Shown here piece by piece: positions 5,092-13,832 of a stretch of DNA of 64,000 bases. This stretch comes from Podarcis gaigeae (taxonomy: Eukaryota). The DNA lies in NCBI GenBank assembly GCA_964106915.2, contig OZ066918.1; one strand, given 5' to 3'. Numbering within the stretch: position 1 is the stretch's first letter; every line of letters starts with the position of its first letter. Below the pieces are notes generated by a model. The model had not been told where the DNA came from, did not search any database, and saw nothing but the letters and a program-made list of their open reading frames with translations. The position numbers and the translations under genes are program-made.

Positions 5092-5196
5092 CTCATCTTT
5101 AGGGAAATAGGGTCTGATGGTGTAAACTTTAGAAGTTGGAGTAAGAGGAGGTGGCTGAAAAAAGAGGTCATTTGCTCCTTCAATAGGCAGCAAACG
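5092..5196 (-). CDS. OGA: OGA exon 12
   Basis: [35 protein letters not shown], 105 nt. Confidence 0.97.
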
Positions 5197-6062
5197 CTGT
5201 GAAAACAAAAAATTAGTGTAAATGTTTGAGAAGATGCAATACATTCCTGGGCGTGCATTGCAGACTCCCAAGTTAACTTTTGCTACTGCAGGCACCCCAG
5301 AGGGAAGTAGGGTTTTGTAGACTTTACAAATGTAAGGACCATTTTTCCATTTTATCTGAACAGAAGTTTTTTAAAGATACACAACTGTTACAACACTTAA
5401 TGGAGTTTACATTAAACTCATTTCTGCTTTAGTATAATTTCACCAAATCTCATCTATGCTCTCAGCTTAACATAGCCATGTCAGGAGGAAAGGTTTGGTC
5501 TGAAGAGGGTTAACTGGCCAGAGGAGACACTAACCCCAAAACAACATGCTGACTCAATTGGCTGTGCGCAGAGAGCACCTGTGAGGGGGAAGAAAGTAAG
5601 CCCCTGAAAAATCCATGAGCAAATTCAGGCACAGAAGAAACATTTCTTTTGGACTGGTTTGCCAACTGGATTATGAGGAACGCAAACTACAAGTTTTGCT
5701 TAGAGAGGATCTTGGAATACACAGTATCGTATTTTCTTTGCTCATGGAGTTCTCGTCGGCAGACAAGCAGGCGCGCATTGTGCAATTGCGGGCGCAGATA
5801 AAAACGCTGTGCGACCTGCAAAGAAACAATGTGAAATGTACAACTAAAAGCCGCAGCGCTTCGCAGGCGCGTGGGAATGGCAGCATCTCCTTGTGATATT
5901 ACTGTAGAAATGGGAGGAAAATTATTTAAAAACAAAGCTGTCAGGCTATTTGGGTTTGGACCAGAAAGCCTTCGGCAGACCAAGCCTTCCAGTCCTCCGA
6001 CGCGCAATAAAAGATTTCTCAAACAAAGACAATGTCATTCAGTTGTGAATTCATATTGATAC

Positions 6063-6148
6063 CTGGAACTCTCCTGCTAGACCACCTCTAAAGGCCCAGG
6101 GTTCTTGGTCTCCACTTAAGAACTGTGCTGAAGATTGACTACGACACC
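6063..6148 (-). CDS. OGA: OGA exon 11
   Basis: (G)[28 protein letters not shown], 86 nt. Confidence 0.97.
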
Positions 6149-7495
6149 CTGTGGAGATCAGATCCAAGCGGAGAACGTTACGAGAAGGGGGATTGTCCTG
6201 AGATGCTAAAATGTCCAACAAGCTAATACACACTTTGTAGGAAAAGCTCTCTAACTGAGCTATAATCCAAGAACTTGAGGGGCTGCGATAATGCTGCTGT
6301 GTGTAGATTCCTGATTAGATGCTTTGTGCTCTTTGTTAATAAAATGAAGTTAGACGATAGCCTTAGACAGCAGAAGATTCAATACTGTAAAAAGCCAGTA
6401 TGCCCCGTTCTGTACAGGTATAATATTTATTCCAAGAGTTGAGCTTGCCTTGTCCTTCTCTTTCATCACTAAGAACATGGAACAGCTCTTACATTTTCAT
6501 TGATGAAGGTATAGATAATAAGCCATTATCACAGCCCCATGGAAATACTTGGACCTGTCTGAAGTCACATTTTCATATTGTTTGAATCTTGCCAGAAAAC
6601 CAGGTTTGGTGTGGGATGGAATAGCCCAAACAGCTATGTGGAACAGATACTTCTTTTTCAAGAGATTAGAAACCAATACTGTCCACTTCCGTAGCTCTGC
6701 TTACACAACAGTAACCACAGCACACATATTGTTCCCAATCTAGGCAACAGCCTCAGTTACAGTATTTTATTTTACCCACCCTCAACCATGTGAGAAATGC
6801 CATTAATTCCTGACAGCCAGCTGTGGCAAGGGCTTTAAAGCCCTCTGCACAATTTAGTAAGAAGGTTATATATTTTTTAATAATGGCTAAGCTTTGATAA
6901 CAGCTTTGATAGCCAAGTTATACAACCAATTAGCATAACTAACATTTTTGAGAGCGGATAGGCAGGTGATTGTTGATGCGGGGATTAAAGTAACCTGCCT
7001 AGTCTTCTGATAAGATAAGCTGCGCAAGTTTGTTTCCTCTTGTGGACAGCGATCTACTTCCTGTTCAAGTAACAATCTCAGATCAGTACAGTCGAATGTG
7101 TCATACTAGCTAGGTAGTCTCAAAGTGAACCAAGCTGGATATCAATGCTTAGCCAATTATGAAAGAAAGCCTTTAAAATAGCAAGTTTGAGATGACTGAA
7201 AACATGTCAATTAGAGTTTCTTGTGTTTCCATATCAAAGTGATTCATTAAAGAGGCTTTATATTATACTCTTTCGCTAGTAACTTGGAGTACTTCTCCTT
7301 TGAGACTACACCGTAACTAGCATTCCAGCTATTATACACTTTACAGAGCTGCATGAATGAAGAGCTGTATGAATGAAAATCAAGAGTTAATGCCTGAGTC
7401 GCTGCGCAAATGTGACTTCAGGCCGTGCCTACTGCCCTAATCTGAGCTGCCTCATGGACAGAACCTTCCCTTCTTAAATTAATTAATCACGACAC

Positions 7496-7558
7496 GCTGA
7501 AAGCATCTGGCGTGGTCCATCCAATAGCAGTAGATACTTGTGCTGAAGATTCTCCCAT
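7496..7558 (-). CDS. OGA: Candidate alternative in-frame cassette exon in OGA intron 10
   Basis: Acceptor cttcttccccaatgtgtgcag|; open in phase 1: (D)GRIFSTSIYCYWMDHAR(CFQ). Frame is preserved with either a GT donor (63 nt, end 7496) or a GC donor (54 nt, end 7505). Confidence 0.55.
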
Positions 7559-9466
7559 CTGCACACATTGGGGAAGAAGACAGTAGAAGGCATTAGTAAT
7601 CCATAGTAGTATTATCTACACTAGTTTCATAAACTGAATGCTAGCTGGATTGAAAGAAAGGGTATAGAGATCAGCCTTCAGCGGACCACCAAGTGTATCA
7701 ACATTCAATGGCTAAACCATTCCAGTTTAGTGATTCTTCTGTATTCACATCAAAATGAGAAGCAACTTTTATGACTATATAAGTAATTAAATAAACTAAA
7801 GAATGGTCTCAATAAACAGCAAGACCAAGATCTCAGCTACAAGAATTCACTTGGTCTGCGGCGAGACAGTTTCTTTTGGTGTAGATGCATCCAGTGGAAT
7901 ATACAAACGTACTGTATTACCAGATAGTATCAGAAATGGGTAGCAAGCACTAAGTACTTCTGCTGGGAGAAGCCATCCTTATGAAAGAAAATGGCAGCTA
8001 CGATCAGCAGCCTGCTCCAAAAATTGGGAAATGTTTCAAAAGCAAATCAACCTCACAGCTGAAATCTATGGTCAATCAAGTTCATGTTTATCATTGCAGT
8101 TGCTTAATGCTCCTTCCAGGAGAAATGCACAATTTAGTTTCCCATCTGTTTCTTTGACAAAATGGGTAATTTGGTAACCAAATATATCACTTAGAAGTAT
8201 GGTGTGCCTCCCTTCCTGCCTTTAAAATAGGGCTGACAATCTTGTTGTAGGGGTTGGCTGATTCTACCTTCCTGTTCCTCTTCCCTAAACAATCTATAAT
8301 GCCTGAACCAATACTGGGGGGAGAAGAGAAAGACAAAGAAATAGGTCTCATGAAGGTACAAACTCTATTCTAAGGCTCAAGTTTTGAATTATTTCCTATT
8401 TATTTAGTGGGAAATGCACAGACTTAAAAAACCTCTCTGCACCAAGCCCTAATTTTTTTTTGCTAGAACCATATGGTCTTCTGCTGAGTAACAGCAAAAT
8501 GCAATATTGGATATCTTGGCAACTAGCTCAATACGACCTATGAATACTTATGAATGCATACAAGTGATTACAGCTTCAAGTGATCCAAGAACTGTAGGCT
8601 GATCCAGTATGGTGCAAGAGGTTTATTATGAGATTTGTGACAACTACAGAAATTGTGACAGGAAACCATCAGCGTTGCTGCCTGCTGTGTGCATCAAGCA
8701 AGTCCACAGCATATTCCTTACAGTTGGATTGAAACCTGAAAGTGAAATGAGGTCACTAGAGGAACCCAGGCCATGCTGGTGCTATTCCAAAAAAACCCCG
8801 TGTAATTTAAAAAAGGCTGCAGGCAAAAAAGGCTCTTTGATTTCTCTTTAGAGAACAGTCTGGTATGAAATCAGACTCCAGAGCTCTGGAATTTCTTCCC
8901 TTGCCCAAAATCAGTCATCTTGCGAATGTTAAAGCAAATCACTTTTGCACCAGAATAGCCTTATGCTAAAGCTCGCATGCGCAGAGAAAGGGCTGGGAGG
9001 CTCGGCTCCCTCTTGGCCAGGCCCATTGAAAGGTCACATCTGCAATTGTTCTGTTGAAGACAGCAATAACGTTATTGAGACAGAGCAAGCAGCAGATAGC
9101 TGAGGCATGGTCACATTTCATAGTGTCATTTCCAATTTTGCAACAAGGCCGGGAAATACTGCATTATAGTCCAGTGTGCATTCAGTCTGAGTCAAAACTT
9201 ATGTTTCAGAGGTCAACTTTTATGTTCCTTAGCCCAAGAAAAAAAATGCAAGACCAAGAGAGATATTCAACGTATGTCCACTGTCACTTTTACTGCCAGT
9301 CTATAGTGAAACATGAATGGCGACCAATAATAGAAAAAGTAAGAAGGATTTAGGGTCAAAGCGACCATAATATAAAAACGTTCAATTGACATCATTTTTT
9401 CCATGGGCTAATTAAAGACAAGCATTTATGCTAGTTGCCACTCTAACTGGTTCCTAAAGAACATAC

Positions 9467-9641
9467 CTAGCCACTGCACAAAAGATTTCACCATAGACAT
9501 GATGCTCTTGATGTCCCAGACATATGAGTACATGTCATAGAGGATTGTCCGGTTGGCACAGTTTGAAAGACGAGTGAACATGCCCATCACCAAGCTACAC
9601 ATCTCTTCAAACTTGGCGGCTCGAGCACGCCATTCTTCAAT
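9467..9641 (-). CDS. OGA: OGA exon 10
   Basis: [58 protein letters not shown], 175 nt. Confidence 0.97.
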
Positions 9642-12414: not shown

Positions 12415-12748
12415 AAAAGGTAAAGGTAAAGGGACCCCTGACTGTTAGGCCCAATTGTGGCCGACTCTGGGGTTGTGGCGCTCATCTCGCTTTATTGGCC
12501 GGGGGAGCCGGCGTACAGCTTCTGGGTCATGTGGCCAGCATGACTAAGCCGCTTCTGGAGAACCAGAGCAGCGCACAGAAACGGCGTTTACCTTCCCGCC
12601 GGAGCACTTTGACATGCTTTCGAACTGCTAGGTTGGCAGGAGCAGGGACCGAGCAACGGAAGCTCACCCCATCGCGGGGATTCGAACCACCGACCTGATC
12701 AGCAAGTCCTAGGCTCTGTGGTTTAACCCACAGCGCCACCCGCGTCCC
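12415..12748 (-). mobile_element. Sauria SINE (Squam1), near full-length
   Basis: 5' GGGACGCGGGTGGCGCTGTGG with B-box GGTTCGAATCC; 3' (ACCTTT)n tail; imperfect TSD ttaagagRtta at 12404-12414 and 12753-12763. Confidence 0.92.
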
Positions 12749-13832
12749 TTAATTAAGAGGTTACTGGGACTCAATTATCTGATTACTGCTACTTCTTTTA
12801 AAGGTGCTAGAGCTGATCCTGGCTACTGCTTATCAACTGGGATATCTCTTCTTGTTTCCTTTGATCACCTGTGTTTTGGGACCAACTGACTGGTAACTGG
12901 GCAGAGGCTTGACAGTTCTGAGACTGCCATCTTCTCCAGGCCTTTGTTCAGGTGTTTTTTCCACAGTAGCTGGCCCATTTTACTTCCATTCCCTCCCTGT
13001 CAAGTAGGGATTCTACCTCTTCCTTCCTTTTGGAATTGAGTAGGTTTGTCTCAGCTATGCATGCTCAAAAAGCTGAATCCAGAATTGCAGAAATTTATTC
13101 TTATGAAGGCATGCCTGCCAAAACAAGTCTGGAACTCTGTTATTTTGCTACATGTGCATGATTATATTTAAGCTCTGAAGTATGTCTGAGAATCTCCAGT
13201 AAGGTTATCTTAATACCATACCTATGTACAACCCGGCAAGACTGAAAGCAGGGTCTATCTATGCAATGAGCCTTTGGTTAGCTCAACATCATTGTTGGGG
13301 AATAGCCAAAAGTGTTACAAGTACTTTGGCAAATAAAGTAATTCATGCACCAGACCCTGGGCAACAGAGAATATGTATGAACATATGCCAAGGACACTTC
13401 ACATAATGTAAGTACATAAAGGAAGGAAATGGCAAGGAAGGAAAGCCCCTCACAGAATTTTCTACGCTCTAGTTCCAAAACTAGCAATTTTAGGAGCTAG
13501 CCATTCCCCATGCGAATGTTATTCATTAGATTTCTCCGCCCCCCCCCCCCACCGTTTGTATTTTCTTTTTAATCATTTATTCTTCTCTTGGTACTCAGTG
13601 TATGTAATCCTTCATTGCACATAGTTCTAATCTGTTGATGAGGAAAGTCAGATTGGAAGTGACTCAGGAGTCTAGTGAATATGTTGTGATTTCATAAAAC
13701 ACGTTGGATAACACGTTGGATACAATCAACAATAGCAAAACACAAATTACAACCAGCAATTGTTCGTTTCATGACAGCGCAAGTTAACCATTCAACAGTT
13801 ATCCTCTGCTTCCTCTTTCCAAGGTATTGGTG

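Follow-up and report, generated by a model that had tools for sequence, protein, structure and literature searches.

The OGA locus and its conservation

The window analyzed here is a 64,000-nucleotide stretch of DNA from the lizard Podarcis gaigeae (contig OZ066918.1). Its minus strand encodes OGA, identified by similarity to human OGA (E 1e-102), and since the exons on both sides of the intron at 6062..5197 have the sizes of human exons 10, 11 and 12, this intron can be recognized as OGA intron 11 (Table 1). Its length of 866 nt and all the coordinates given in the initial annotation, including two cryptic acceptors (5815 and 5578) and a GT after 5535, were confirmed on recheck.

Table 1. Features of the OGA locus in the window (positions in nucleotides of the window).
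Feature	Position	Strand	Remarks
OGA exon 10	9467..9641	-	175 nt, human length
Intron 10 (DI1)	6149..9466	-	conserved blocks, 10 common long-range helices, likely decoy exons
Helix examples of DI1	7421/6559, 7010/6592, 9094/8676, 8697/6223	-	14, 13, 11 and 11 bp, respectively; common to both species
OGA exon 11, regulated cassette	6063..6148	-	86 nt; 86/86 same in L002 ortholog
Intron 11 (putative DI2)	5197..6062	-	866 nt; 695/866 same in L002
Helix C, 5' arm (predicted)	5976..5983	-	pairs with 5502-5495 (8 bp); lengthened by 5989-5985/5493-5489; same in both species
Pyrimidine tract and acceptor of decoy exon	5902..5925	-	23/24 same; mostly unpaired in folds
Likely decoy/poison exon	5842..5901	-	60 nt (59 in L002); weak donor; human +169..+227
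Helix B, 5' arm (predicted)	5882..5891	-	within decoy exon; 10 bp with 5531-5522; one G-U/G-C change
CpG-rich patch	5750..5880	-	122/131 same as L002; 11/13 CpG kept
Acceptor 1	5815..5835	-	same throughout in L002; decoy donor 26 nt upstream; lacks a strong conserved donor on its downstream side
Helix A, 5' arm (predicted)	5737..5748	-	pairs with 5623-5612 (12 bp); further 5 bp at 5754/5606
Variable apical loop	5624..5736	-	67/113 same
Helix A, 3' arm (predicted)	5612..5623	-	one G-C/G-U change
Second conserved block	5478..5599	-	109/122 same; carries acceptor 2 (5578, kept) and the 3' arms of helices B and C; GT after 5535 absent from L002
Conserved block before true 3' splice site	5246..5301	-	51/56 same; predicted hairpin
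OGA exon 12	5092..5196	-	105 nt

In human OGA, introns 10 and 11 (DI1 and DI2) are rich in conserved regions and are detained, and they respond to O-GlcNAc in human and mouse cells; low O-GlcNAc favours exon 11 skipping and NMD, and DI1 responds more than DI2 (PMC7261177). The accessible text of that paper calls the mechanism of this control unclear, maps no cis-elements and mentions no secondary structure. The lizard locus shares with the human system the gene, the exon sizes, the conserved introns flanking exon 11 and the early stop that results from exon 11 skipping (frame check; also PMC7261177). The difference is that retention and the O-GlcNAc response were shown in the human system, whereas the lizard intron is known here from its sequence. 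Intron 11 of the window is thus likely the counterpart of DI2, and the two introns are called DI1 and DI2 below.

Conservation was evaluated against a single ortholog, L002, found as one locus in a metagenome scan; the genome contigs and viral contigs searched yielded no further OGA orthologs. L002 is not human, and because it shares with the window a one-residue gap and several residues that differ from human OGA, it likely belongs to another sauropsid. At the fourfold sites of seven other exons 90 of 189 positions differ between window and L002 (48%), exon 4 having been left out because it was read in the wrong frame (90/198 when included), while none of the 12 fourfold sites of exon 11 differs (P 4e-4). 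The ortholog matches DI2 along its whole length (81% identity across 1227 nt) and DI1 in separate blocks; introns 4, 5, 7, 8, 9 and the covered part of 12 gave no match to it, so that among the longer introns covered alignment occurs in 10 and 11 only, the short intron 6 being bridged between two exons. Against this one ortholog DI2 is conserved above the neutral level. The loop at 5736-5624 lies at background level, as its 59% identity is within the about 50-65% that gapped alignment alone yields in unconserved parts. In the conserved block that precedes the true 3' splice site, the outer helix of the predicted hairpin has a probability of 0.48-0.67 in three of the four folds and 0 in the other.

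Candidate decoy exon and predicted folding of introns 11 and 10

DI2 contains a third conserved acceptor at 5901 that was absent from the initial annotation; this site as well as those at 5815 and 5578 are conserved in L002 and pyrimidine-rich like real acceptors. The segment that follows (5901-5842) ends at a donor that is conserved and very weak (4/9 U1 matches). When it is joined to exon 11 it begins with an in-frame stop in both species. Premature stops of this kind, from the decoy or from the frame opened at 5815, would be NMD triggers. The join of exon 10, the decoy and exon 12 is frameshifted with a stop in the window and leaves an open frame in L002; the corresponding human join was reported with a stop (PMC12894984).

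In human DI2 an alternative donor 227 nt into the intron and a 59-nt cryptic exon were detected by RNA-seq and RT-PCR, both rare unless drug-induced, and no structure is proposed in the accessible text (PMC12894984). A list of decoy exons (supplement of PMC12017769, taken from Parra 2018), which holds cassettes only, includes as its sole DI2 entry the human cassette +169..+227 (59 nt), present as two duplicate rows of six. The segment of the window occupies +162..+221 of the intron and that of L002 +164..+222 (exactly 59 nt). It was picked from the lengths in PMC12894984 before the listed coordinates of the human cassette came to hand. The window exon differs from the human one in its length of 60 nt and its very weak donor, and on position and length alone it is likely the counterpart of the human cassette.

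Two conserved blocks of DI2 are complementary. The predicted helices A, B and C (12, 10 and 8 bp) form a nested set that encloses the variable spacer. Helix A has a probability of 0.93-0.97 in both species and over both spans; helices B and C reach 0.99 in L002 vs 0.01 in the window's own ensemble, where forcing them costs 3.4 kcal above the minimum. Across the three helices 28 of 30 pairs are identical in window and L002, and the remaining two are altered in one arm without losing the pair. When the L002 fold is applied to the window core, 46 pairs are unchanged, 4 kept, 7 broken and 1 falls in a gap, close to the keep rate of 27% expected by chance. Helix A can be regarded as a well supported prediction, and helices B and C as plausible ones.

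The significance of these helices was evaluated with shuffles that preserve local conservation and dinucleotides. The presence of two common helices at or below -18 kcal was matched in 14 of 745, 8 of 803 and 5 of 343 shuffles, and the alignment fold gave a z of -2.6 (4/214) for a region chosen after seeing the fold. Looser counts did not reach significance: 64/745 shuffles matched at -15 kcal, 95/745 when substitutions were counted and 175/1186 in the alignment test. No such helices occur on the antisense strand of DI2 or in the parallel-complement control, and a coding-exon control was not enriched (3 helices; 80/244 and 93/308 shuffles). No covariation was detected in DI2 between the two species compared. 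Complementarity between conserved blocks thus exceeds chance modestly in DI2 (p about 0.01-0.02) and strongly in DI1.

Three further pairings were considered and rejected. Helix D, between the CpG block at 5776 and the acceptor at 5578, is strong in L002 and loses 2 of its 7 pairs in the window; a local hairpin of the window (5995/5958) loses 2 of 13 pairs in L002 and is not conserved; and a helix of 14 bp (6255/5960), which would place exon 11 in a loop, has the same sequence in window and L002 but is rich in G-U pairs, and as shuffles of the joint region contain several helices equally strong, it cannot be told apart from a chance pairing. Pairing of the intron ends also differs between window and L002.

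The helix signal of DI1 is stronger than that of the intron 11 patch, and its helices are probably the more important ones. The common helices at or below -15 kcal number 10 vs 1.75+-1.44 expected, and the changes that keep pairs number 17 vs 1.9 expected; neither value was reached in any shuffle (0/138, 0/88 and 0/53). Fifteen of these changes are one-sided and two are two-sided, the two-sided count being reached in 2/138, 6/88 and 1/53 shuffles. The antisense strand and the parallel control gave one helix each. One of the DI1 helices (7010/6592, 13 bp) stops immediately ahead of the donor that closes a conserved candidate decoy exon at 7060-6995, which measures 66 nt (68 in L002, by hand count) and matches in position the human 67-nt cassette of the PMC12017769 list.

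Other observations were made in and near DI1. Helices that share arms compete with each other (7353/6530 vs 6534/6283; 7010/6592 vs 6601/6245). The acceptor at 7558 is conserved and may open another decoy exon, its position matching that of the human 106/116-nt cassettes in the list, with a donor that is not clearly conserved. A conserved 11-bp helix (6174/6109) pairs the pyrimidine tract of exon 11 with exon 11 itself, and this predicted pairing could explain part of the nucleotide invariance of the exon.

Taking these data together, the patch belongs to the conserved sequence of OGA intron 11, which probably acts as DI2, with a likely decoy exon (5901-5842) lying inside a predicted nested RNA stem. 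The strong and exposed acceptor at 5901, combined with its weak donor, would recruit early spliceosome parts and, by competing with the acceptor of exon 12 and the weak donor of exon 11, delay DI2 removal; in the rare cases of decoy inclusion, exon 11 would be followed at once by a stop, and the RNA would undergo NMD. With helices A-C formed, the 500-nt region would take the shape of a rod in which the decoy exon is partly covered and acceptors 5815 and 5578 stay unused. O-GlcNAc-sensitive splicing factors may then shift the balance among detention, exon 11 inclusion and skipping.

A wider model, possible though not one that we regard as probable, would see in both detained introns a conserved network of competing long-range helices formed over or next to the acceptor of exon 11 and the decoy exons. 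Such a network might be the missing cis-element of OGA feedback, O-GlcNAc-sensitive RNA-binding proteins opening or closing the fold to switch exon 11 inclusion.

A rather unlikely alternative is that the blocks are conserved as linear sites for splicing factors together with decoy splice sites, the complementarity within DI2 being incidental. It agrees with the lack of covariation in this intron and with a best fold of the window itself that lacks helices B and C, and pairs that do not vary are uninformative in this regard. However, helix A, whose arms are conserved and whose loop varies, is predicted in both species, and the excess of helices is strand-specific and strong in DI1.

Part of this picture is already in print, namely the conserved detained intron and the 59-nt exon. 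The predicted long-range fold across both introns appears to be new, although genome-wide tables may already hold the pairs. The helices resemble PCCRs in being intronic and long-range, in overlapping cryptic splice sites and in looping out sequence (PMC8052449); OGA is not named in five supplement files of that work, the full coordinate tables of which may contain these pairs. A full-text literature search, with subscription papers outside its coverage, revealed neither a study of how OGA introns fold as RNA nor a map of OGA cis-elements; a SpliceAI plot (figure 5g of PMC12894984) may show equivalents of 5815 and 5578. Decoy sites and helix arms offer direct targets of mutagenesis and antisense molecules for tuning OGA. 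This enzyme is a drug target in neurodegeneration.

Cryptic acceptors 5815 and 5578

The initial annotation had proposed that acceptor 5815 and a 44-nt exon (5578-5535) form a poison-exon switch, reciprocal to that of OGT. That both acceptors are strong was borne out: 15 and 17 of 20 positions are pyrimidines vs 11-18 in 17 real OGA acceptors, and among 234 background intronic YAG sites five reach 15 and none reaches 17. The 44-nt exon has the length and the frameshift attributed to it and keeps its acceptor; its donor GT after 5535 and its branch-like motif are absent in L002, so that it does not constitute a conserved unit. The region of this donor adjoins an arm of helix B.

The frame opened at 5815 does run 42 codons to the predicted stop in the window, but in L002 it stops after 28 and 4 of the first 23 residues differ. 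For these reasons a conserved coding alternative exon at 5815 was rejected, and the truncated protein proposed from it is unsupported, as the frame is not kept and its stop would trigger NMD. Each of the four folds pairs the AG of 5815 for the most part, leaving it unpaired with a probability of 0.14-0.32, but the partners differ; the acceptor is predicted to pair partly with the CpG-rich bases 5797-5776. The 26 nt between the decoy donor and this acceptor are too few for an intron. Given this spacing, the paired AG and the downstream sequence devoid of a strong conserved donor, the most fitting interpretation of acceptor 5815 is that of a silent decoy site or a component of the fold.

The proposed switch is quite improbable as a whole. 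Its two acceptors are strong and conserved and use of either unit would give an early stop, but the donor and branch motif of the 44-nt exon and the frame from 5815 are not kept in L002, and the switch described in the accessible text of PMC7261177 is exon 11 skipping. In addition, the human DI2 cassette maps to 5901-5842 and neither of these units is in the human cassette list (PMC12017769), which cannot show alternative acceptors. What persists of the proposal is a conserved non-repeat regulatory element in a detained intron, the O-GlcNAc responsiveness of which is known from the human system (PMC7261177). Within the preferred reading, a decoy exon in a nested stem, 5815 and 5578 may act as unspliced decoys.

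CpG content of the patch

The CpG-dense patch described in the initial annotation stands out from the CpG-depleted introns around it. It contains 13 CpG, a number reached by 1.2% of the 130-nt windows in the 64 kb, all the others within a CpG island at 20.6-21.8 kb, and the observed/expected CpG ratio of intron 11 is 0.54 vs 0-0.34 in 10 other OGA introns. Seven aligned CpGs differ in L002, six as CA and one as TG, which are marks of methylated decay. We propose that the CpGs owe their persistence to selection against decay and not to island status.

Two GC-rich near-repeats in the patch (5870-5863 and 5775-5767) differ in L002 by a C-to-A change at the equivalent place in each; that they change in parallel points to a binding motif present twice. 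Both resemble an NRF1 site.

It is very improbable that the patch acts as a DNA element, such as an unmethylated intragenic enhancer or promoter. CpG retention and the parallel change of the two NRF1-like near-repeats would fit such a function; yet the patch is far under island size, the CpGs that differ in L002 bear the marks of methylated decay, conservation tracks splice signals and runs through exon 11, and the predicted helices are specific to the sense strand.

A transposon remnant or a chance patch can be practically dismissed: young repeats do form CpG-rich patches elsewhere in OGA (12.5-12.8 kb), but this one has a single match in its own genome (by a whole-genome search that skips very common words) and 93% identity at the orthologous place. 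Nor does the patch match any Rfam family. The insertion in intron 5 (12420-12780) is CpG-rich and looks like a young SINE.

OGT intron 4, with its decoy/poison exon and ISS, is similar to the OGA introns as a conserved retained intron that carries a cryptic exon with a weak donor (PMC7261177, PMC12017769), and differs in that the central exon is coding in OGA. When OGA introns 10 and 11 were compared with both OGT copies of the same genome, no significant similarity (best E 0.22) and no shared intron 4 motif was found. These copies, at C32:10.51-10.59 Mb and C33:50.83-50.90 Mb, agree in sequence where intron 4 begins. They are possibly Z/W gametologs, as chromosome homology would suggest, or a duplicated haplotype. 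OGT intron 4 is CpG-rich in both copies.
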